From Eledone cirrhosa (lineage: Eukaryota): a stretch of DNA of 64,000 bases. Below, in pieces: positions 7,050 through 63,540 of the stretch. A model generated the notes under the pieces. It had not been told where the DNA came from and made no database searches. It saw nothing but the letters and a program-made list of their open reading frames with translations. The translations under genes were made by a program, and so were the position numbers. The DNA is taken from positions 22,134,001 through 22,198,000 of the forward strand of contig OZ024766.1 in assembly GCA_964016885.1 (NCBI GenBank), written 5' to 3'. The stretch's first letter is position 1. The number at the start of each line of letters is the position of its first letter.

Positions 7050-7235
7050 CATACACACGCACATATATATATAACAAAGGAAATGTGGTAAGGAACCAGA
7101 TGGACCATAACGCACCAAAGTACTCAATACTTAGGGTAGTAGAGTGGGTAATAGGAACAAGTATGACCCCCGATGGCAGAGCTCAAGCCGTTGAAACAGC
7201 TTGAGCTCTGGCGTCGGGGGTCATACTTGTTCCAA

Positions 7236-7274
<39 letters not shown>

Positions 7275-7431
7275 GTATGCAAAAGTTCTATTTAAAATTG
7301 TTGGGATACAGCAAGTAAATATTTTTATAACTGATATAAAGCACTCAACAAGATGACTTCCGGATGACTTCCAAAAACAATGGTTGCATTTTTAATAGGG
7401 TACGTCAAAGCTTATTTGTAAAACTGTTATA

Positions 7432-7505
7432 TATTGTATTTTGTCTGATGAAGGCATACCATAATTTAATTTGGTATCCCTGAAATATGTATAATGAAAT
7501 AAATA
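7432..7505 (+). ncRNA. Minimal type I hammerhead ribozyme motif (AT-rich family A)
   Basis: Stem I tattttgt/atgaaata; CTGATGA 7445-7451; stem II agg..atacca/tggtat..cct; GAAA 7482-7485; short stem III (ATA-TG-TAT); predicted AUA cleavage after 7493. Confidence 0.65.
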
Positions 7506-7569
7506 TGGTTTTATAAATATAGTTTCCATTTATTAATATCTTATATATATATATGTATATATATATATA

Positions 7570-9080: not shown

Positions 9081-10475
9081 GACATGGGCAGCAACTGCAG
9101 AGGATATGCGATGGCTGGAGAGAAATAAAACAAGCATGCTCTGTTGGATGTGCAGTGTAAATGTGTGTGAACGACCAAGCATGGATGTGTTGAGAGAGAA
9201 ACTGTGTCTGAGAGGGATAAGTTGTGGTGTGTGGGAGAGAAGACTGAGGTGGTATGGACATGTGATGTGTTGAGAGAGAAACTGGGTATAAGAGGGATAA
9301 GTTGTGGTGTGTGGGAGAGGAGACTGAGGTGGTATGGACATGTGATGTGTTGAGAGAGAAACTGTGTATAAGAGGGATAAGTTGTGGTGTGTGGGAGAGA
9401 AGACTGAGGTGGTATGGACATGTGATGTGTTGAGAGAGAAACTGGGTATAAGAGGGATAAGTTGTGGTGTGTGGGAGAGAAGACTGAGGTGGTATGGACA
9501 TGTGATGTGTTGAGAGAGAAACTGGGTATAAGAGGGATAAGTTGTGGTGTGTGGGAGAGAAGACTGAGATGGTATGGACATGTGATGTGTTGAGAGAGAA
9601 ACTGGGTATAAGAGGGATAAGTTGTAGTGTGTGGGAGAGGAGACTGGGATGGTATGGACATGTGATGTGTTGAGAGAGAAACTGTGTATAAGAGGGATAA
9701 GTTGTAGTGTGTGGGAGAGAAGACTGAGATGGTATGGACATGTGATGTGTTGAGAGAGAAACTGGGTATAAGAGGGATAAGTTGTGGTGTGTGGGAGAGA
9801 AGACTGAGGTGGTATGGACATGTGATGTGTTGAGAGAGAAACTGGGTATAAGAGGGATAAGTTGTGGTGTGTGGGAGAGAAGACTGAGGTGGTATGGACA
9901 TGTGATGTGTTGAGAGAGAAACTGGGTATAAGAGGGATAAGTTGTGGTGTGTGGGAGAGAAGACTGAGGTGGTATGGACATGTGATGTGTTGAGAGAGAA
10001 ACTGGGTATAAGAGGGATAAGTTGTGGTGTGTGGGAGAGAAGACTGAGGTGGTATGGACATGTGATGTGTTGAGAGAGAAACTGGGTATAAGAGGGATAA
10101 GTTGTGGTGTGTGGGAGAGAAGACTGAGATGGCATGGACATGTGATGAGTTGAGAGAGAAACTGTGTATAAGATGGATAAGTTGTAGTGTGTGGGAGAGA
10201 AGACTGAGGTGGTATGGACATGTGATGCACATGGAGGAAGACTGCTGGGTAAAGAAGTGCCAAGAAATGCCAGTAGAAGGAAGACGTGGTAGAGGTAGAC
10301 CACGAAAAACATGGGCGGAGGTGGTGAGAGCAGACCTCAGATCGCTGAAGCTCACGGAGGAGATGACGAAGGACCGTGACAAGTGGAGAGATGCTGTGCT
10401 GAATAGGACCCATCCCACCCTTGCAAGCAGGGAAAAGCGGATGTAAAATTATGATGATGATGATGATGATGATGA
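9081..10475 (+). mobile_element. RTE-clade LINE 3' fragment with an internal 80-bp tandem array (~13 copies, 9186-10225)
   Basis: TWAATAEDMR.LERN...MLCWMC...RRLRWYGHVM...GRRGRGRPRKTW is the RTE ORF C-terminus; (ATG)n tail. Confidence 0.9.
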
Positions 10476-11429: not shown

Positions 11430-13411
11430 TATAATTATAATAAAAATGATAATAATTAAATTATTGTGTACAGTGCTCAGGTGCACTACAACTCAACAAA
11501 GGTGCATGTATAGTACGTAGAATAATGTACAAATGTCAGGAAAGTGAACAGTGTATGAGTCATGGTATACATGTGTGTGTGTATAGAGGATATCAGGTGT
11601 AGTGTTGGCGAATCTCAGGAAGCATGGAGGTTTTAAAGGATGCAGTGTCTCGACAGCTAACAACTGATGCAGGTAGTTTGTTCCATGGAGGTTTTAAAGG
11701 ATGCAGTGTCCCGACAGCTAACAACTGATGCAGGTAGTTTGTTCCATGGAGGTTTGAAAGGATGTAGTGTTTCGACAGCTAACAACTGATGCAGGTAGTT
11801 TGTTCCATGGAGGTTTTAAAGGATGCAGTGTCCCGACAGCTAACAACTGATGCAGGTAGTTTGTTCCATGGAGGTTTGAAAGGATGTAGTGTTTCGACAG
11901 CTAACAACTGATGCAGGTAGTTTGTTCCAAGGAGGTTTTAAAGGATACAGTGTCTCGACAGCTAACAACTGATGCAGGTAGTTTGTTCCATGGAGGTTTT
12001 AAAGGATGCAGTGTCTCGACAGCTAACAACTGATGCAGGCAGTTTGTTCCAAGGAGGTTTTAAAGGATGCAGTGTCTCGACAGCTAACAACTGATGCAGG
12101 GAGTTTGTTCCATGGAGGTTTTAAAGGATGCAGTGTCTCGACAGCTAACAACTGATGCAGGCAGTTTGTTCCATGGAGGTTTTAAAGGATGCAGTGTCTC
12201 GGCAGCTAACAACTGATCCAGGTAGTTTGTTCCAAGGAGGTTTTAAAGGATGCAGTGTCTCGACAGCTAACAACTGATGCAGGTAGTTTGTTCCAAGGAG
12301 GTTTTAAAGGATGCAGTGTCTCAACAGCTAACAACTGATGCAGGTAGTTTGTTCCATGGAGGTTTTAAAGGATGCAGTGTCTCGACAGCTAACAACTGAT
12401 GCAGGTAGTTTGTTCCATGGAGGTTTTAAAGGATGCAGTGACTCGACAGCTAACAACTGATGCAGGCAGTTTGTTCCATGGAGGTTTTAAAGGATGCAGT
12501 GTCTCGACAGCTGACAACTGATGCAGGTAGTTTGTTCCATGGAGGTTTTAAAGGATGCAGTGTCTCGACAGCTAACAACTGATGCAGGTAGTTTGTTCCA
12601 TGGAGGTTTTAAAGGATGCAGTGTCTCGACAGCTAACAACTGATGCAGGTAGTTTGTTCCATGGAGGTTTTAAAGGATGCAGTGTCTCGACAGCTGACAA
12701 CTGATGCAGGTAGTTTGTTCCATGGAGGTTTTAAAGGATGCAGTGTCTCGACAGCTGACAACTGATGCAGGTAGTTTGTTCCATGGAGGTTTTAAAGGAT
12801 GCAGTGTCTCGACAGCTAACAACTGATGCTGGTAGTTTGTTCCATGGAGGTTTTAAAGGATGCAGTGTCTCGACAGCTGACAACTGATGCAGGTAGTTTG
12901 TTCCATGGAGGTTTTAAAGGATGCAGTGTCTCGACAGCTAACAACTGATGCTGGTAGTTTGTTCCATGGAGGTTTTAAAGGATGCAGTGTCTCGACAGCT
13001 AACAACTGATGCAGGTAGTTTGTTCCATGGAGGTTTTAAAGGATGCAGTGTCTCGACAGCTAACAACTGATGCAGGCAGTTTGTTCCATGGAGGTTTTAA
13101 AGGATGCAGTGTCTCGACAGCTGACAACTGATGCAGGTAGTTTGTTCCATGGAGGTTTTAAAGGATGCAGTGTCTCGACAGCTAACAACTGATGCAGGTA
13201 GTTTGTTCCATGGAGGTTTTAAAGGATGCAGTGTCTCGACAGCTAACAACTGATGCAGGTAGTTTGTTCCATGGAGGTTTTAAAGGATGCAGTGTCTCGA
13301 CAGCTGACAACTGATGCAGGTAGTTTGTTCCATGGAGGTTTTAAAGGATGCAGTGTCTCGACAGCTAACAACTGATGCAGGGAGTTTGTTCCATGGAGGT
13401 TTTAAAGGATG
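11430..13411 (-). mobile_element. CR1/L2-like LINE 3' end with a 61-bp tandem array (~29 copies, 11623-13411)
   Basis: The unit on - encodes WNKLPASVVSCRDTASFKTS (the WNxLP...FK C-terminal motif of CR1/L2-type ORF2), followed by MLPEIRQHYT*, a 3' UTR and an (ATT)n-like tail. Confidence 0.8.
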
Positions 13412-13575
13412 CCGCTAAGTCCTGCATCTCCAAGAGACCAGTGTCTGTTCTTAGGGCATCAACATATGTCAACCTTGGTATCCCTCTTCCAGTGTGTCCA
13501 TGTAGGGGCTCCCACAGGAGCATTGAGTGCAGTGTCAACTTGGAATGTCGGTGAGCATGTCCAGGTGACCTCTTA
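13412..13575 (-). mobile_element. RTE-like LINE C-terminal fragment (third family)
   Basis: LLWEPLHGHTGRGIPRLTYVDALRTDTG; homologous to 34795-34992. Confidence 0.7.
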
Positions 13576-13921
13576 AAGTGTATATATATATATATGCACA
13601 CACTCATACATATATATATATACATATATATATATACATATACACACACGCACACACACATATATATATATGCACTTACTCATACATATATGTACACATA
13701 TATGTATATATATACATATACACATACATATATATATATATGCACATACTAATACATATATGTACACACATATATACATATACACACACATATATATATA
13801 TACATATACACATATATATATATATATATAAATATATATATGCACATACACATACATAGATACTTACACATGCATATATACTTATACATATACACATACA
13901 TGCATATATATATACACATGA

Positions 13922-13952
<31 letters not shown>

Positions 13953-14157
13953 TGAATATATATATATATACATACACACACATGAATATACATATATATA
14001 TATACACACACATGAATATATATATATATACATATATATACACACATGAATATATATATATATACACACACATGAATATATATATATATACACACACATG
14101 AATATATATACATATACACACACACATGAATATATATATATATATACACACACATGA

Positions 14158-14188
<31 letters not shown>

Positions 14189-14504
14189 CACATGAATATA
14201 TATATATATATATATATATACATACACATGAATATATATATATACATACACACACGTGCCTAGTAGTCTAGTTGCACTTTATGTTATATAAATAAATATA
14301 GAGTAAGCGATGTGAAACAAACCCCCCATGTTAGAAATAACTGCTACACCCTTCTCAAATTACACCTTATTCCCTTATACAGGGAAGGACACACAGAAAA
14401 TTGGAGCACAAGAAAAAGAGAGGAAGATACTCTACTATCCTAGCATTGAGTACTTTGTTTAATAATTACCTTACTAGTTTAATGGAGGTCCTATCTTGAT
14501 ATAT

Positions 14505-15454
14505 AATAATTATAATAGTAGTGAAATTATTGTGTATAGTGCTCAGGTGCACTACAACTCATCAAAGGTGCATGTATAGTACATAGAATAATGTACAAAT
14601 ATCAGGGAAGGGAACAGTGTATGAGTCATGGTATACATGTGTGTGTGTGTGTGTGTGTATGGAAGAGGAATATCTGGTGTAGTGTTGGTGAATTTCAGGA
14701 AGCATGGAGGTTTTAAAGGATGCAGTGTCTCGACAGCTATCAACTGATGCAGGTAGTTTGTTCCATGGAGGTTTTAAAGGATGCAGTGTCTCGACAGCTG
14801 ACAACTGATGCAGGTAGTTTGTTCCATGGAGGTTTTAAAGGATGCAGTGTCTCGACAGCTAACAACTGATGCAGGTAGTTTGTTCCATGGAGGTTTTAAA
14901 GGATGCAGTGTCTCGACAGCTGACAACTGATGCAGGTAGTTTGTTCCATGGAGGTTTTAAAGGATGCAGTGTCTCGACAGCTAACAACTGATGCAGGTAG
15001 TTTGTTCCATGGAGGTTTTAAAGGATGCAGTGTCTCGACAGCTAACAACTGATGCAGGTAGTTTGTTCCATGGAGGTTTTAAAGGATGCAGTGTCTCGAC
15101 AGCTGACAACTGATGCAGGTAGTTTGTTCCATGGAGGTTTTAAAGGATGCAGTGTCTCGACAGCTAACAACTGATGCAGGTAGTTTGTTCCATGGAGGTT
15201 TTAAAGGATGCAGTGTCTCGACAGCTAACAACTGATGCAGGTAGTTTGTTCCATGGAGGTTTTAAAGGATGCAGTGTCTCGACAGCTAACAACTGATGCA
15301 GGTAGTTTGTTCCATGGAGGCCTTAAAGGATGCAGTGTCTCGACAGCTAACAACTGATGCAGGGAGTTTGTTCCATGGAGGTGTTAAAGGATGCAGTGTC
15401 TCGACAGCTAACAACTGATGCAGGGAGTTTGTTCCATGGAGGTTTTAAAGGATG
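14505..15454 (-). mobile_element. Second CR1/L2-like 3' end with a 61-bp array (~12 copies)
   Basis: Same 3' UTR and same unit as 11430-13411. Confidence 0.8.
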
Positions 15455-16204
15455 ACCAAAAGACAGATAGACAGATAGATAGATAGATAGATAGATAGGT
15501 ACAACAAAAGACTGGAGGGCACCTTAGGTAAGGTAGTCCTAGATACACTATGACTGAATAAAAGACAGGATGGCCACAGTTGGAACAGCTTTGATCATAG
15601 ATCTATCTACTAGACCAGGACTGACCTAGGGCTAAACAACAACAGCAACAACAATTACTCGGAAACAACGATAATATTCCAACCCACGTGAGAATATCTT
15701 ATCTAGTTCTCGTACCTACATGGTAAAGTCTTAGTCCCCTCCTCTGCGCCATTACACCATAGCGAGTACCACATCTATTACAAATTTCGAGAGAGCATCC
15801 CAGTCTTTTGAACTACACATTTAAAACTGATTTTTCTAATTAAATAAACTTCTAATTGATTAATTTATAAAGAATTTTAAGGGATTTATTAAAATTATTA
15901 ATTGTTTCATTACTAAGAAAGTAACTTAAAGTAGGTTCTTGTATAAAATTATGTTGGAAGATTTAAATTTAAATAGGAACCCTTTAAAATGTGGGGTTTT
16001 ATTTCATAGAACCAGGGGAGGTTTTGGCTGGGTTGGTTTCAAAAGGGTTAATGAAGAATTTTGAGGGTTTTTACAAAAATATTAATTATTTCATTACTAA
16101 GATAATAATTTGGAAGATTTTAATTTAAATAGGAACTCTGTATTTCAATTAATTAATGAAGAATTTTGAAAGATTGACCACAGAACGACCATTAAAGAAT
16201 ATTA

Positions 16205-24318: not shown

Positions 24319-24433
24319 GTTGATGATCAGTGAAATAAAAACAAATGTACCATCTCCAACCATCCAGGAAGATCCAACCGTTAAGGTTGTCCCTTTTCAG
24401 GGTATGTCAATATTTATTTATAAAACTAATCTG

Positions 24434-24508
24434 TATTGTATTTTATCTGATGAAAGCGCACCATAATTTGCCTTGGTGGCCCTTGAAATATGTATAATAA
24501 AATAAATA
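24434..24508 (+). ncRNA. Minimal type I hammerhead ribozyme motif (family A)
   Basis: Stem I tattttat/ataaaata is perfect; CTGATGA 24447-24453; stem II aag..cacca/tggtg..ctt (covaries with agg/cct at 7452); GAAA 24485-24488; AUA cleavage predicted after 24496. Confidence 0.7.
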
Positions 24509-24887
24509 TAGTTTTATAAATACAGGTTTCCATTTGTTAATATATTGTATATATATATATTGTATATATATATATATATTGTATATATATATATATATAG
24601 TATATATATATATTGTATATATATATATTGTATATATATATATATATATATATAGTATATATATATATTGTATATATATATATATTGTATATATATATAT
24701 TGTATATATATATAGTATATATATTGTATATATATATATAGTATATATATATATTGTATATATATATATATTGTATATATATATATTGTATATATATATA
24801 GTATATATATATATATTGTATATATATATATTGTATATATATATAGTATATATATTGTATATATATATATAGTATATATATATATAG

Positions 24888-26466
24888 TATATGCGCATGA
24901 AAGATGACAGCTGTATAAAAAAGTGCAGGGCAATAAAGATAGACGGTAGCCACGGGGTAGGCAGACCCAGAAAAACCTGGGATGACTTGATAAATTCCGA
25001 CCTCACACACTTACACCTCTCCAAGACAATGTCACTGGACCGAGACCTTTGGCGCTACACAGTAATAGAGAAGACCCGCCTTGCCTAAGTACAAAGTGAA
25101 ACCTACTACAGTCAGTAGGCACCTCTAACAGAAATACACCCCTGTCCCACTACCCCCACCCCATCCACACCACCCCTTTAAATGTAAAGTTATGTTGGTA
25201 CCACAACATCCAGCCCGAAACAAATGAGATCGTGTAGGTGTCACGACAAAAAAAACACGCAGTCCACGCTGTAATGTGGCCATGTAGGTAACACGGTAAA
25301 AACCTCCCAGTCCACACTGTAAACGTGGTTGGTGTTAGGAAGGGCATCCAGCCGTAGAAAACCCGCCAGACGTGTAGGTGTCACGACAAAAAAAACACGC
25401 AGTCCACGCTGTAATGTGGCCGTGTAGGTAACACGGTAAAAACCTCCCAGTCCACACTGTAAACGTGGTTGGTGTTAGGAAGGGCATCCAGCCGTAGAAA
25501 ACCCGCCAGACGTGTAGGTGTCACGACAAAAAAACACGCAGTCCACGCTGTAATGTGGCCGTGTAGGTAACACGGTAAAAACCTCCCAGTCCCACACTGT
25601 AAACGTGGTTGGTGTTAGGAAGGGCATCCAGCCGTAGAAAACCCGCCAGACGTGTAGGTGTCACGACAAAAAAACACGCAGTCCACGCTGTAATGTGGCC
25701 GTGTAGGTAACACGGTAAAAACCTCCCAGTTCCACACTGTAAATGAGGTTGGTGTTAGGAAGGGCATCCAGCCGTAGAAAACCCGCCAGACGTGTAGGTG
25801 TCACGACAAAAAAACACGCAGTCCACGCTGTAATGTGGCCGTGTAGGTAACACGGTAAAAACCTCCCAGTTCCACACTGTAAATGAGGTTGGTGTTAGGA
25901 AGGGCATCCAGCCGTAGAAAACCCGCCAGACGTGTAGGTGTCACGACAAAAAAACACGCAGTCCACGCTGTAATGTGGCCGTGTAGGTAACACGGTAAAA
26001 ACCTCCCAGACGCACACACTGTAAACGTGGTTGGTGTTAGGAAGGGCATCCAGCCGTAGAAAACCCGCCAGACGTGTAGGTGTCACGACAAAAAAACACG
26101 CAGTCCACGCTGTAATGTGGCCGTGTAGGTAACACGGTAAAAATCTCCCAGTCCCACACTGTAAACGTGGTTGGTGTTAGGAAGGGCATCCAGCCGTAGA
26201 AAACCCACCAGACATGTAGGTGTCACGACAAAATCACACAGTCCACGCTGTAATGTGGCCGTGTAGGTAACACGGTAAAAACCTCCCAGACCCACACTGT
26301 AAACGAGGTTGGTGTTAGGAAGGGCATCCAGCCGTAGAAATCAAGCCAGAATCAGTTCCCGTATGAGCAAGACAAGGCCAGCCGACCGGACACTGCCCAC
26401 AACAGGACAACCCGTCTAACCCATGCTAGCGTGGAAGAACGGACGTAAAACGGTGATGATGATGAT
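24888..26466 (+). mobile_element. RTE-like LINE (second family): ORF C-terminus + long 3' UTR with ~8 copies of a 140-bp unit + (ATG)n tail
   Basis: MRMKDDSCIKKCRAIKIDGSHGVGRPRKTWDDLINSDL...DRDLWR (24891-25088); the 140-bp period is visible at 25231, 25371, 25511, 25651, 25791 and 25931. Confidence 0.8.
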
Positions 26467-28514: not shown

Positions 28515-28633
28515 CATGGATGTATATATATATATATATATATACATCCATGTATATATATATATAAATATATATAACGGCGATGAATTAGTTTTGCAAG
28601 GTTTTTGATATGAAATCGTGTGTCTAAACAAAT

Positions 28634-28807
28634 ATAGTTATACTTGGGGAGGGTCATATTGTTATACTTGGGGAGGGTCATATTGTTATACTTGGGGAGG
28701 GTCATATTGTTATACTTGGGGAGGGTCATATTGTTATACTTGGGGAGGGTCATATTGTTATACTTGGGGAGGGTCATATTGTTATACTTGGGGAGGGTCA
28801 TATTGTT
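28634..28807. repeat. 24-bp minisatellite x7 (tattgttatacttggggagggtca)
   Basis: Tandem copies; single-copy versions of the unit occur at ~32410 and ~33572. Confidence 0.9.
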
Positions 28808-31592: not shown

Positions 31593-31905
31593 CATATTAA
31601 GACAACGCCCGTTCTAGCATCTGTTGTTGTTGTTGCAATTAATTGATGGCTGTGGATTATGTGGGATGTTATGGGACAAATATCGATATATATACGTGTT
31701 TGGATGTGTGCGTGTATATATATATATACATACATGCTTTGATAGAAAGTATAAATATATTTAAATATATATTATGGCGTCAAGTATGAAATTTGTAGAA
31801 ATTTTTTATTTTTTCAACAAATGTCTACAAATTTCATACTTGACGATCTAATATATATATATATATATACATATATGTATGTATGTATATGTATATATAC
31901 ACACA

Positions 31906-31955
<50 letters not shown>

Positions 31956-32257
31956 GGCGTCAAGTATGAAATTTGTAGAAATTTGTTATTTTTTCAACAA
32001 ATGTCTACAAATTTCATACTTGACGCCATAATATATATATATATATATATAAGTTCTATCAAAGCATGTATGTATATATATATATACACGCACACATACA
32101 AACACGTATATATATCGATATATATATGTGTCCCAGGTTCAATCGATGGTAATCACAGTAAAGTACTCAATACATTAGTAGAGTGTAAACATCAAGTCTA
32201 TTATAGAAATGGCTTCTACAGGACTAGAGCTGTTTCATTCAAAGGATATTTTGTATG

Positions 32258-32505: not shown

Positions 32506-32755
32506 CATAATATATATATATATAATATATATATAATATACATAATATATATATATATATATAATATATATATAATATACATAATATATATATATATATA
32601 TATAATATATATATAATATACATAATATATATATATATATATAATATATATATAATATACATAATATATATATATATAATATACCAAATCAACTTTTTAA
32701 AAGGAAGTTGCATTATCACAAGGTATGTCACTAATTATTTATAAAACAGCTTATG

Positions 32756-32830
32756 TATTGTATTTTGTCTGAGGAAGGCATAACATATTTTTAATATGAT
32801 ATCCCAGAAATATATATAACGAAATAAATA
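32756..32830 (+). ncRNA. Hammerhead ribozyme motif (family A, CTGAGGA core variant)
   Basis: Stem I tattttgt/acgaaata; CTGAGGA 32769-32775; GAAA 32807-32810; palindromic ATATATAT stem III; the first stem II pair is mismatched. Confidence 0.5.
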
Positions 32831-32875
32831 TGGTTTTATAAATATAAATCTAGTTTCCATTTGTTTAATATCGTA

Positions 32876-32935
<60 letters not shown>

Positions 32936-33089
32936 TATATATAATCTTGGTACCAGATCTACCATTTTACTGGGTGATTTCTTATTGCGATAATTCACGA
33001 ATTTCTGAAGTGTAAGGGGGATAACCCTGTCTAGTCTAGTTTATAGAATATAGTTTATAGAATATCTGAACTGAATTTACAGAAAAATA

Positions 33090-33195
<106 letters not shown>

Positions 33196-33345
33196 GGATG
33201 TGAGTTTTATTGTAGTACAATAAAGCAATGCAGATATCGGATAAGAAGCACTCTACAGTTTGTAGGACTGGAGTATACATAATATATAAGAACAAAAGAA
33301 CTGCACTATCCACAAGTGTTTTTTAACCTTCATATCATGTCTTCC

Positions 33346-33416
33346 TATTTAATCTGATGAAAACACAAATGTTATTGCATGATGATATTTGTTTTTGAAA
33401 TGCGCATAATAAAATA
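33346..33416 (+). ncRNA. Hammerhead ribozyme motif (family B)
   Basis: CTGATGA 33354-33360; stem II aaa.acaaat/atttgt.ttt; GAAA 33397-33400; palindromic ATGCGCAT stem III; AUA cleavage after 33408. Confidence 0.6.
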
Positions 33417-33446
33417 CATGGAACTCTTTTAACCATCTTTTGTTCT

Positions 33447-33516
<70 letters not shown>

Positions 33517-33570
33517 CGTTTCTGAATTTGTTTAGCAAGATTCTTTATCTGAAAACGTGTGTTGAAACCT

Positions 33571-33853
33571 ATATTGTTATACTTTGGGAGGGTCATGTTG
33601 CCAATAAGAAACACACGCACCAGTTGCTTTCTCTTCAACTTATTATAATAAATTTATAAATTTAGGAATTTATAAATTTCCGGTTGGTTGGTTGGTTCCA
33701 ATGTGTGACAAAAGAACTTTCACAATATATAAACAACCATCTGGTTGTGGAACCAACCAACCAACCGGAAATTTAGAAATTTATTATAATAAATTGAATT
33801 TAAAGCAACTGGTGCGTGTGTTTCTTATTGGCAATATGACCCTCCCAAAGTAT

Positions 33854-33861
<8 letters not shown>
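33571..33861. repeat. Foldback / inverted repeat (~290 bp)
   Basis: atattgttatactttgggagggtcat...ccggttggttggttggttcca is mirrored by tggaaccaaccaaccaaccgg...atgaccctcccaaagtataacaatat. Confidence 0.85.
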
Positions 33862-33888
<27 letters not shown>

Positions 33889-33922
33889 ATATTAATAAAT
33901 GGAAACTATATTTATAAAACCA

Positions 33923-33997
33923 TATTTATTTCATTATACATATTTCAAGGACACCAAGTTAAATTATGGTGTGCTTTCATCAGATAAAATATAATAT
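33923..33997 (-). ncRNA. Hammerhead ribozyme motif (family A)
   Basis: On -: tattttat CTGATGA (33983-33977) aag cacacca...tggtgtc ctt GAAA (33946-33943) tatgta TA atgaaata. Confidence 0.65.
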
Positions 33998-34281
33998 AGA
34001 TCAGTTTTATAAACAAATATTGACATACCGTTAAAAGATTGCGACCACGGATAGTGATAAAAGCACACCACAACTTGCTTTGGTGTCCTTGAAATATGTA
34101 TAATGAAATAAATATGGTTTTATAAATATAGTTTCCATTTGTTAAAAAATTTGTTGAGTGCTTTATATCAGTTATACAAATATTTGCTTGTTGTATCCCA
34201 ACAAATTAAATATAACTTCTACATATATATATATATATATATACGATATATTAACAAATGGAAACTATATTTATAAAACCA

Positions 34282-34356
34282 TATTTATTTCATTATACAT
34301 ATTTCAAGGACACCAAGTTAAATTATGGTGTGCTTTCATCAGATAAAATATAATAT
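34282..34356 (-). ncRNA. Hammerhead ribozyme motif (family A), tandem partner of 33923-33997
   Basis: Identical core; CTGATGA at 34342-34336, 359 nt from the previous copy. Confidence 0.65.
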
Positions 34357-34599
34357 AGAGCAGTTTTATAAATAAATATTGACATACCCTTAAAGAATGC
34401 GACCATTTCTGTTGGAAGCTCCCGTATAGTATATCCTCAATATAGTTTCCATTTGTTAATATATCGTATTTTTACTCCAATTATTTGTTGAGTGCTTTAT
34501 ATCAGTTATAAAAATATTTGCTTCTTGTATCCCAACAATTTAAATAAAACTTCTACATATATATATATATATGAAGAGGGCTTTCGTTTAATCGGACCG

Positions 34600-34742
34600 A
34601 GGAAACGATGTTTCCATTGGTCTTTCCAATTGCTAATACTATCTATCGGTCGCAACTCCAGGTAGAAGGAGCAACGTGAAATAAAGTGTCTTGCTCAAGG
34701 ACATAACGCATCGCCTGGTCCGGGAATCGAACTCACAACCAC
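34600..34742 (-). mobile_element. tRNA-derived SINE head
   Basis: Reverse complement of 8935-9070. Confidence 0.75.
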
Positions 34743-34794
34743 ACGCCTTCCACACATACACACACGTATATATATATATATATATATATATTCT

Positions 34795-34992
34795 ATTCTA
34801 AGGCGGGTAAAATTCCCGAGATCCATGGACGAGTTCTCTCCAGCGGTCTCCGTCCCTCATTATCGCTGCCATGTCCTGCATCTACAACAGACCAGTGTCT
34901 GTCCTTAGGGCATCAACATACGTTAACCTTGGTCTTCCTCTTCTAGTGTGTCCATGTAGGGGCTCCTACAGGAGCACTGAATGCAATGTCAA
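34795..34992 (-). mobile_element. RTE-like LINE C-terminal fragment
   Basis: EPLHGHTRRGRPRLTYVDALRTDTG...MRDGDRWRELV on -, with in-frame stops. Confidence 0.7.
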
Positions 34993-35141
34993 CACGTATA
35001 TATATATATATATATATGTAGGAGGTGAGTTTTATTGTAGTACAATAAAGCAATGCAGATATCGGATAAGAAGCACTCTACAGTTTGTGGGACTGGAGTA
35101 TGCATAATATAAGATCAAAAGATGGTTAAAGGAGTTCCATA

Positions 35142-35212
35142 TATTTTATTATGCGCATTTCAAAAACAAACATCATCAAGCAATAATATTTGTGTTTTCA
35201 TCAGATAAAACA
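35142..35212 (-). ncRNA. Hammerhead ribozyme motif (family B), minus strand
   Basis: TCATCAG at 35198-35204; mirror image of 35338-35408. Confidence 0.7.
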
Positions 35213-35337
35213 GGAGAACATGATATGAAGGCTAAAAAACATTTGTTGATAGTGCAGTTTTAAATCAACATATCAGATATGTTGATTTAAAACTGCACTA
35301 TCCACAAGTGTTTTTTAGCCTTCATATCATGCTCTCC

Positions 35338-35408
35338 TGTTTTATCTGATGAAAACACAAATATTATTGCTTGATGATGTTTGTTTTTGAAATGCGCATA
35401 ATAAAATA
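35338..35408 (+). ncRNA. Hammerhead ribozyme motif (family B), plus strand
   Basis: Stem I ttttat/ataaaa; CTGATGA 35346-35352; long stem II; GAAA 35389-35392; ATGCGCAT palindromic stem III; cleavage predicted after 35400. Confidence 0.7.
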
Positions 35409-35460
35409 TATGGAACTCCTTTAACCATCTTTTGATCTTATATATATATATATATATAGG

Positions 35461-35545
35461 GGTCTGATGAGCCGCGGTTTACAGAGTCAGGTCAGATCGA
35501 TACAGATCGAACCTTGAGCTGATGAGCGGCGAAACGCACGTCACC
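35461..35545 (+). ncRNA. Hammerhead ribozyme motif (family C, GC-rich, canonical GUC site)
   Basis: ggt CTGATGA (35464-35470) gccgc...gcggc GAAA (35531-35534) cg-ca-cg TC acc; cleavage predicted after C35542; AATAAA shortly downstream. Confidence 0.7.
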
Positions 35546-35620
35546 AACCAATAAACGTAATGAAGGAGTAACCAATCGTCCCTGACATCTTATTTCACTA
35601 TATATATATATATATATATA

Positions 35621-36002
35621 TAGGAAAATGTATGACCCCGACGGCAGAGCTCAAGCCGTTTCGACGGCTAATTCTGGACTAAAAAAAAAAAAAATTTTTT
35701 TTAAAAATCCGGAATTAGCCGTCGAAACGGCTTGAGCTCTGCCGTCGGGGTCCTACTCGTTCCTATTACCCACTCTACTACCCTAAGTATTGAGTACTTT
35801 GGTGCGTTATGGTCCACCTGGTTCCTTACCCCATTTCCTTCGTTATATATATACATATATATATATAGGAAAATGTATGACCCCGACGGCAGAGCTCAAG
35901 CCGTTTCGACGGCTATTTCCTATTACCCACTCTACTACTCTAAGTATTGAGTACTCTGGTGTGTTATGGTACTCAATACTTAGTGTAGTAGAGTGGGTAA
36001 TA
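35621..36002. repeat. Foldback repeat family (gtatgaccccgacggcagagctcaagccg...), several rearranged copies
   Basis: Hairpins at 35621-35765 and 35921-36002; same family as 7075-7233. Confidence 0.8.
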
Positions 36003-36059
36003 TTTTAATATATATATATATATTAAAATAACAGATTAAAGTTTAAGCAAAGAATCGCT

Positions 36060-36205
36060 AGCAGAGTTACGGCCCTTGCTATTCTGAGTTCAAATCCCGC
36101 CGAGGTTGACTTTGCTTTTCATCCTTACGGGGTCGATAAAATAAAGTACCAGTAATGCACTGGGGTAATTGCTGGCCTTGTGCCTAAAGTAGAAACAATT
36201 ATTAT
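36060..36205 (+). mobile_element. tRNA-derived SINE (second family)
   Basis: gagttcaaatccc B-box and shared body with 11300-11418. Confidence 0.75.
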
Positions 36206-36813: not shown

Positions 36814-62412
<25,599 letters not shown>

Positions 62413-62922: not shown

Positions 62923-63029
62923 ATTTATATATGTTTGTGTATATATATATATACACATATGTGTGTATTTATATATGTTTGTGTATATATATATATATAC
63001 ACATATATATATATATACACATATAAAAG

Positions 63030-63540
63030 AAGGAACAAAAAGAACTGAACCTCTACTCCTTGGAGCGAAGACGGGAGAGATACGCAGTGATCTACACGTG
63101 GGAAATCCTGGAGGGGGGGGGGGGGGGACCAGCCCCAAAATTTGGCATTGGGAGCTGGACCAACCCCCGAACTGGACGTCACTGTGTGGTGCCAAAGGTC
63201 CCGTCTTCCACATCTAGAATAGGGAGCAGATATTGCAATAGCCTGAGGGGGGGGTTCAAGGGCCCTCAACTCTTCAACAAGCTGCCAAGGGATCTGAGAG
63301 ATCTGCACGGTGTGTGTGTGGGGGGGGGGGGATGCCTTCAAGAAACATCTCGGCTCCCTGCTATCCAGGATATTGGGGAGAGCCCACAGCACAGCAAGGC
63401 ACGAGGGGGAACCTAAGGGCAGCAGCACCAGTGGTCAACCAATACAGGCTGGAGACAGAATGTGTAGAAAACAAGGGCGGTGCCCCAGCATGGCCTCAGC
63501 CGGATGGCTGGAACATGTAAAAGACTAAAAAAAAAAAATG
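63030..63540 (+). mobile_element. CR1/L2-like LINE ORF2 C-terminal fragment, frameshifted
   Basis: LYSLERRRERYAVIYTWEILEG...RTGRHC...GPQLFNKLPRDLR...FKKHL; A-rich end. Confidence 0.75.

Follow-up and report, generated by a model that had tools for sequence, protein, structure and literature searches.

How does a near-perfect palindrome with a hammerhead ribozyme motif on each strand come to stand in chromosomal DNA, and is such an arrangement a functional unit or a by-product of retrotransposition? The question is raised by a locus near the middle of a 64,000-nucleotide stretch of the Eledone cirrhosa genome (assembly GCA_964016885.1, contig OZ024766.1; hereafter the window), an animal-type, microsatellite-rich sequence with 563 TA runs. 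An earlier interpretation, made from the letters alone and here called the sequence-only reading, had proposed either an inverted pLTR made by fold-back priming of a Penelope-type reverse transcriptase (RT) or a ribozyme unit of viroid style. The evidence presented here points with considerable confidence to a 5'-truncated or non-autonomous pLTR insertion of a Penelope-like element (PLE) into (TA)n, probably made in trans by a PLE RT/GIY-YIG protein.

Structure of the palindrome and its hammerheads

The palindrome, first described at 35108..35442 with arms of about 167 nt, is real and slightly longer than claimed. It is a mirror repeat of 337 bases, in which two arms of 168 nt each (35107-35274 and 35276-35443, one base longer than in the first description) are arranged around A35275. 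The arms are mismatched at three positions (35218/35332, 35242/35308 and 35247/35303), and BLAST gave an E value of 1e-164, so the palindrome is not a product of chance.

A motif scan located one hammerhead per strand, in agreement with the coordinates of the sequence-only reading. On the plus strand the motif occupies 35338-35408 (core at 35346, predicted cut after 35400) and on the minus strand 35142-35212 (core at 35204, predicted cut after 35150). The two hammerheads are identical in sequence, and in both arms the sequence is intact through the predicted cut site. According to motif scan, fold and alignment, they belong to the minimal type I class and lie inside a terminal-repeat-like arm. 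In each, the core is intact, stem I is 8 bp long, stem II is long and made up of a 12-bp helix and a 3-bp base, and stem III is minimal, its palindromic loop being predicted to self-pair as a duplex at -10.5 kcal/mol. At gathering score, Rfam gave 0 matches across the whole window, and the 50 weak hits in 32700-36100 included no hammerhead family, being mostly miRNA hairpin models that matched palindromes by shape. The isolated hammerhead motif also folded no better than shuffled sequences (z -1.27), and the hammerhead call therefore rests on the motif scan and on pairing.

Directly after the palindrome, at 35459-35598 on the plus strand, lies a hammerhead-like motif of type I that differs from those in the arms (core at 35464), with a long stem II containing a second core-like heptamer at 35519. 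It folds with a z of -3.24 and is present as a single copy in the window.

Anatomy of the element and its sister copy

On the minus strand, alignment shows one continuous element: an arm between about 35275 and 35107 that includes the hammerhead, followed by an 89-nt 3' tail (35018-35106) and then (TA)n. The tail is continuous with the left arm on the minus strand and belongs to one arm only, which makes 35107-35274 the tailed (direct) pLTR-like arm; the tail abuts the left (TA)n target tract at 34997-35017. The inverted arm on the plus strand (35276-35443) has no tail and stops at an internal 3' site, its last 5 nt overlapping the right (TA)n target tract at 35439-35458; a target-site duplication is unreadable in (TA)n. 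Between the arms, 35275 is the unpaired centre of a head-to-head junction, and arm starts across the family cluster around it, at 35272-35287. The tail contains a 32-codon open frame on the minus strand (35019-35114) that runs to the 3' end of the element, as would be expected if the tail is the start of a parent ORF; no Pfam match was obtained for this frame.

The sequence-only reading had pointed out that a related element about 2 kb upstream, at 33192-33450, has the same upstream flank. The similarity is there (4 mismatches and 2 gap columns in 106), and the shared sequence is not a flank: it is the element's own 89-nt 3' tail. This sister insertion occupies 33193-33453 and consists of a tail and arm stub on the minus strand (33193-33298) joined to a 153-nt tail-less arm on the plus strand (33299-33451), with a hammerhead (core at 33354) that has one mismatch in stem I. 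Its left arm is mostly missing, as had been noted, leaving a short stub with a 21-nt inverted match that is partly TA. In the right arm, 153 nt are common to the sister copy and the palindrome, with 12 mismatches. Over these 153 positions the two palindrome arms differ from each other at 3, and from the sister copy at 12-13. Beyond the TA tracts nothing longer than 12 nt is common to the two loci. Since the sister copy has its own variants on both arm ends and unrelated outer flanks, it is read as a separate truncated insertion, which it probably is. The same observations, together with a junction like many others, speak against the earlier suggestion that it arose by cruciform deletion.

The same layout elsewhere in the window

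A tail and an inverted tail-less arm set between TA tracts were found in ten units of five families within the 64 kb, nine of them besides the palindrome. The units start at 33193 and 35018 for the family of the palindrome, at 7275, 33885 and 34244 for a second hammerhead family, at 7074, 35620 and 35865 for a third family, and at 33515 and 46077 for a fourth and a fifth. Five units are strongly asymmetric (33193, 7275, 33885, 34244 and 35865), and in all five the tail-less arm is the longer one; in the unit at 33515 the tailed arm is slightly longer (131 vs 115 nt).

The second hammerhead family is present at 7275-7541, 24395-24545, 32722-32873, 33885-34222 and 34244-34556 (cores at 7445, 24447, 32769, 33983 and 34342). 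It aligns to the palindrome family in the core and stem I and has a tail of about 71 nt, and three of its copies combine the tail with a longer inverted arm. The third family (7074-7236, 35620-35843 and 35865-36002) has a 77-nt tail and is truncated within what appears to be the 3' half of a hammerhead. Its copy at 35620 has an A-run/T-run spacer and its copy at 35865 an extra inversion within the tail; a quasi-palindrome template switch was considered for the 35620 unit and dropped, as the tail-plus-inverted-arm layout explains that unit. At 33515-33862 lies a tail-plus-inverted-arm unit of the same family as 28584-28805, in which no hammerhead core was found and which may be Naiad-like; a piece of this family forms a 24-nt tandem array near 28.7 kb. 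The fifth family is represented at 46077-46527 by a 412-nt palindrome between TA tracts, having 197-nt arms that are 99% alike, a short spacer, a 39-nt tail and, in each arm near the centre, a degenerate hammerhead-like stretch that fails the motif scans. Two related 78-nt imperfect palindromes (31773-31850 and 31953-32030) also lie between TA tracts, within a larger inverted structure at 31680-32121.

The family in sequencing runs

The stretch was partly present in 20 of the 24 sequencing runs listed, three of which contain half or more of its words. None of the matching runs listed is an RNA run, which bears on expression in neither direction. Four runs were aligned to 35018-35310 at 85% likeness, the reference ending at 35310; runs with small shares (X13-X21) were left out. 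Matches comprised 4,008 contigs in X1, 402 in X5 and 26 in X4, the last under a different organism label; X22, a RAD-seq DNA library from another study with the same species label as X1, contributed 4,932 raw reads. In X1 the summed contig depth reached about 2 million on the arm, compared with 9-44 for the single records listed; this depth is not a copy number, and we read from it no more than that the family is very abundant. The same measure gives the tail about half the depth of the adjoining arm. At the tail-less ends 35104 and 35107, the mirror of the right-arm end, 295 and 197 raw reads of X22, respectively, pass into (AT)n, and the family thus has two 3' ends about 89 nt apart, at 35018 and at 35104-35107.

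The inner junctions are also informative. In all 15 of the joints listed, out of 36, one arm starts at 35272-35287, no more than 12 nt from the centre. Breaks on the opposite side range from 35047 to 35226, and in 7/15 the break lies inside the tail; the remaining 8 are in-arm joints on contigs too short to tell which side has the tail. The joint 35199-to-35272, with its 8 nt of microhomology, may have arisen by later deletion. In X1, the centre lacks 2, 5 or 7 nt in 9, 7 and 2 contigs, respectively, and X4 adds one contig with such a variant; depth at the central base 35275 is 50,100 in X1 and 3 in X22. Palindromic copies are therefore neither unique nor the majority, and many family copies in the runs are without the palindrome. 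Among the pieces listed for the four aligned runs, no single contig or read spans the whole palindrome locus.

Minority letters of the family are found in both arms, at 35179 (where the other letter makes up 93% of X1 depth) and at 35141 (75%). Together with the 3/153 differences between the arms, these shared letters indicate that the arms came from one template or subfamily. At 35247 the right-arm letter accounts for only 67% of X1 depth and the left-arm letter may be a common family variant, so that not all three arm mismatches need be decay after insertion.

Beyond 35273-35277 the sequence runs on in 274 reads of X22, and in contigs of X1 and X4, into a continuation that is absent from the 64-kb window and may be the body of a longer parent element. 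The centre is thus a frequent arm start, and not a proven 5' end of the RNA. A subfamily with a variant stem II is visible in each of the four runs, where loose ends fall at 35169-35178. A pile of read ends at 35159 in X22 was considered as a sign of cleavage and discarded, as a RAD-seq DNA library says nothing on cleavage. Exact-pattern scans of viral contigs, metagenome contigs and prokaryote genomes gave no match.

Relation to Penelope-like elements

The proposal that the palindrome is an inverted pLTR made by a Penelope-type RT finds support in its architecture, in the other units of the window, in the joints and in the published layout of PLEs. PLE insertions often include an inverted 5'-truncated copy and a tail of 30-40 bp at one end, and the origin of the inverted repeats and tails is called open in the same text (PMC8557442). 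At the present locus there is an inverted 5'-truncated copy, head to head, adjoining the 5' end; a tail on one end only (89 nt, 35018-35106); and variable 5' truncation (joints from 35047 to 35226) with TA tracts on both sides. Among 143 peptides from the window (3 in addition to 140 of the 216 candidate frames), Pfam found no PLE RT or GIY-YIG domain; the hits were weak ones to zf-RVT and TCR and two that are noise. PLE membership is accordingly likely, not proven, with four structural features that fit and the defining ORF unlinked.

Published EN+ PLEs resemble the locus in having a head-to-head truncated copy, a junction palindrome, a one-sided tail, a pLTR hammerhead and a microsatellite target (PMC3846280, PMC8557442), but the palindrome insertion differs in being without an ORF, in its 89-nt rather than 30-40-nt tail and in arm starts clustered at one position. 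For the head-to-head PLE junction palindromes themselves, self-priming has been proposed (PMC3846280). Minimal hammerheads 100-700 bp apart on opposite strands have been ascribed to truncated PLEs, and such pairs within 100-700 bp in Schistosoma mansoni are alike to the arrangement seen here (PMC4209133). According to the same source, metazoan PLE hammerheads share with ours the intact core, the long helix II and a short palindromic helix III suited to dimers, whereas those of the palindrome have an 8-bp stem I, a longer stem II and A-U instead of G10.1-C11.1 at the base of stem II. A bias towards (TA)n is described for Naiad and, by hypothesis, Neptune elements, and Naiads are described as being without canonical hammerheads (PMC8557442). 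Because the present element combines a hammerhead with a (TA)n target, the partner RT most likely belongs to a Neptune-type clade.

A biochemical parallel is provided by the Poseidon element PAc of Anolis carolinensis, as reported for work in vitro (PMC11167929). [quoted passage not shown] Two 3' ends delimiting a tail, an AT-rich target and a hammerhead carried uncut into DNA are therefore common to both systems, but PAc is of another clade and has another tail length, and formation of the inverted arm was not reconstituted in the portion of that study available. In the literature search on cephalopods no description of the palindrome family was found; it may already be deposited in Repbase or Dfam.

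Formation of the inverted arm

Within the PLE reading, the observations fit two-ended priming better than fold-back, and we regard two-ended priming as the reasonably probable route and fold-back as a tentative second. In the former, an endonuclease would cut both strands of a TA tract, after which one target end would prime reverse transcription at the tail end of the RNA while the other would prime at an internal site, in a short TA-like stretch matching the target. Both cDNAs would then run toward the 5' end of the RNA (at about 35275) on a template that is uncut at the hammerhead, and their far ends would be joined with a loss of 0-7 nt. Two complete cDNAs would give a near-perfect palindrome, and an early stop on the tailed side would give copies like that at 33193. 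The hammerhead on each strand would be a by-product of the duplication, predicted to be trapped in a hairpin in read-through RNA; the intact hammerheads in both arms fit an uncut template.

The sequence-only reading had named fold-back priming as the route to an inverted pLTR, and here its PLE origin holds up while the fold-back step does less well. In this alternative, the cDNA reaches the 5' end, snaps back and is copied to the internal site, and asymmetric copies follow by later one-sided deletion of the tip. It accounts for the palindrome locus equally well, and the 1-nt spacer with small deletions at the centre, the minority alleles common to both arms, the one joint with 8-nt microhomology and the published proposal of self-priming for head-to-head PLE palindromes (PMC3846280) all agree with it. 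The family at large agrees less. In 7 of the 15 listed joints (of 36) the break on the tailed side falls within the tail, with the opposite arm beginning at the centre, and all 5 strongly asymmetric units of the window have the longer tail-less arm, although tip deletion should strike either side; these features disfavour fold-back because the inverted arm cannot exceed the first cDNA, barring later one-sided deletion. Moreover, a 1-nt loop would probably be hard to form by snap-back, and head-to-head self-priming requires an antisense template according to PMC3846280. As a complete account that includes the later tip deletions, fold-back is in our judgement somewhat unlikely. Besides work on L1, the literature search for twin priming in PLEs gave only PMC3846280.

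Other explanations of the locus

The second proposal of the sequence-only reading, a kinetically controlled or self-silencing ribozyme unit of ambisense, viroid-like design, is considered here as a functional unit selected for its rod-like RNA or dsRNA. Several features are in its favour: the two strands bear one hammerhead each, folding predicts 86-90% of a read-through RNA to be paired, and forms that cross the centre are found in more than one contig and under more than one organism label. The viroid-like circular RNAs of PMC10162972 are alike in having one ribozyme motif per polarity and a rod-like predicted fold. The ambisense RNAs of that paper, however, are circles without a DNA counterpart that replicate by symmetric rolling circle, whereas the palindrome is chromosomal DNA, its complementary arms are predicted to block the ribozyme and no unit-length RNA would be released. 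It lies in a repeat-rich window, and the family has 4,932 reads in the genomic DNA run X22. Each strand carries one family motif, with no tandem unit in 33000-36100 that two same-strand cuts could release, and the palindrome is missing from many copies of the family. On either strand, the hammerhead falls in the second arm of a 426-nt read-through RNA (index 239 and 328), so an antisense arm precedes the ribozyme on both, and the active fold is predicted to cost about 105.5 kcal/mol, compared with 7.0 for a single arm with its tail. With the ribozyme predicted to be buried to that extent, and with near-exact complementary arms that are just what duplication gives, we consider selection for such a unit highly improbable and do not uphold this proposal. 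A dsRNA hairpin from read-through is nevertheless physically predicted by the folding model.

An assembly or chimeric-read artefact is rated equally improbable. Such structures trouble assemblers (PMC8557442), no listed piece spans the whole stretch, and the runs that match best may be the source sample itself. Against this stand the three substitutions between the arms, an inverted arm that stops exactly at the family's internal end, as do 295 and 197 raw reads from an independent study, the centre-crossing contigs in X1 and X4 and the depth of 3 at 35275 in X22, and the same layout in four other families of the window. Slightly less improbable, while still very unlikely, is a locally inverted monomer of a non-LTR retrozyme, that is, of a circRNA-based tandem family. 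Non-LTR retrozymes are related to PLE pLTRs and consist of short units that have a type I hammerhead and no coding sequence (PMC7229834; bioRxiv 10.64898/2026.07.22.740005), and descent from such pLTRs has been argued (bioRxiv 10.64898/2026.07.22.740005), and the present element shares their short non-coding unit, type I hammerhead and low GC. Retrozymes form head-to-tail tandem arrays that yield circRNA, unlike the head-to-head pair with a tail seen here. No head-to-tail array was found in 33000-36100, BLAST gave two window copies, 2 kb apart, go-back joins number 0 among the 15 listed joints (with a single such row in another table of the run alignments), and the one-sided tail and variable truncation are marks of PLEs. 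The least credible explanation is a miniature inverted-repeat or foldback DNA transposon inserted at TA, to which the long inverted arms and TA flanks would correspond; against it, 89 nt of the element lie outside one arm and none outside the other, the inner junctions are variable, copies without symmetric ends are seen, and the hammerhead is kept, with pair-preserving changes in stem II.

Significance

Hammerheads on opposite strands are a layout that, by comparison with the published cases, is already described for PLEs, and the single locus accordingly matters little. By the same comparison, the element differs from those cases in its 89-nt tail and in how tightly its arm starts cluster. 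The value lies in the family, or rather in several families, whose very short insertions have countable junctions: a complete tail-less arm beside a tailed side that is cut short favours two independently primed cDNAs over fold-back. Scans that label a rod with two ambisense ribozymes as viroid-like should moreover be read with care, as PLE debris gives the same signature in chromosomal DNA.

A more far-reaching picture, which we regard as unlikely and put forward as speculation, is that of a non-autonomous, PLE-driven hammerhead element of about 260 nt with a fixed 5' start, in which two-ended priming always builds a full inverted arm. Such an element would have seeded hundreds to thousands of near-perfect hairpins of 150-200 bp, which on read-through would be dsRNA substrates for editing or small-RNA pathways. 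If this is true, thousands of tiny junctions amount to a natural experiment that would settle how PLE inverted repeats and tails arise.

Genomic context

A scan for sigma-70 promoters, which has no bearing on a eukaryote, gave 4 against 4.1 expected by chance. On the plus strand, 42300-60604 contains exons of a host gene whose N-terminal region is of very low complexity. A protein search with a host exon gave 2 hits among 8,000 candidates, one of which has PF03638, and there is a weak TCR hit at 60362-60604; on the basis of this homologue and the weak TCR hit the gene is likely lin-54/tesmin-like. C-terminal fragments of non-LTR retrotransposons are present at 10066-10446, 47903-48448, 59866-60345 and 63027-63416, and we take the classes represented to be RTE-like, L1/Tx1-like (with a weak zf-RVT hit from Pfam) and CR1/L2-like. 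Evenly repeated short frames point to tandem arrays at about 11600-15500, with a period near 61 nt, and at 25150-26180.
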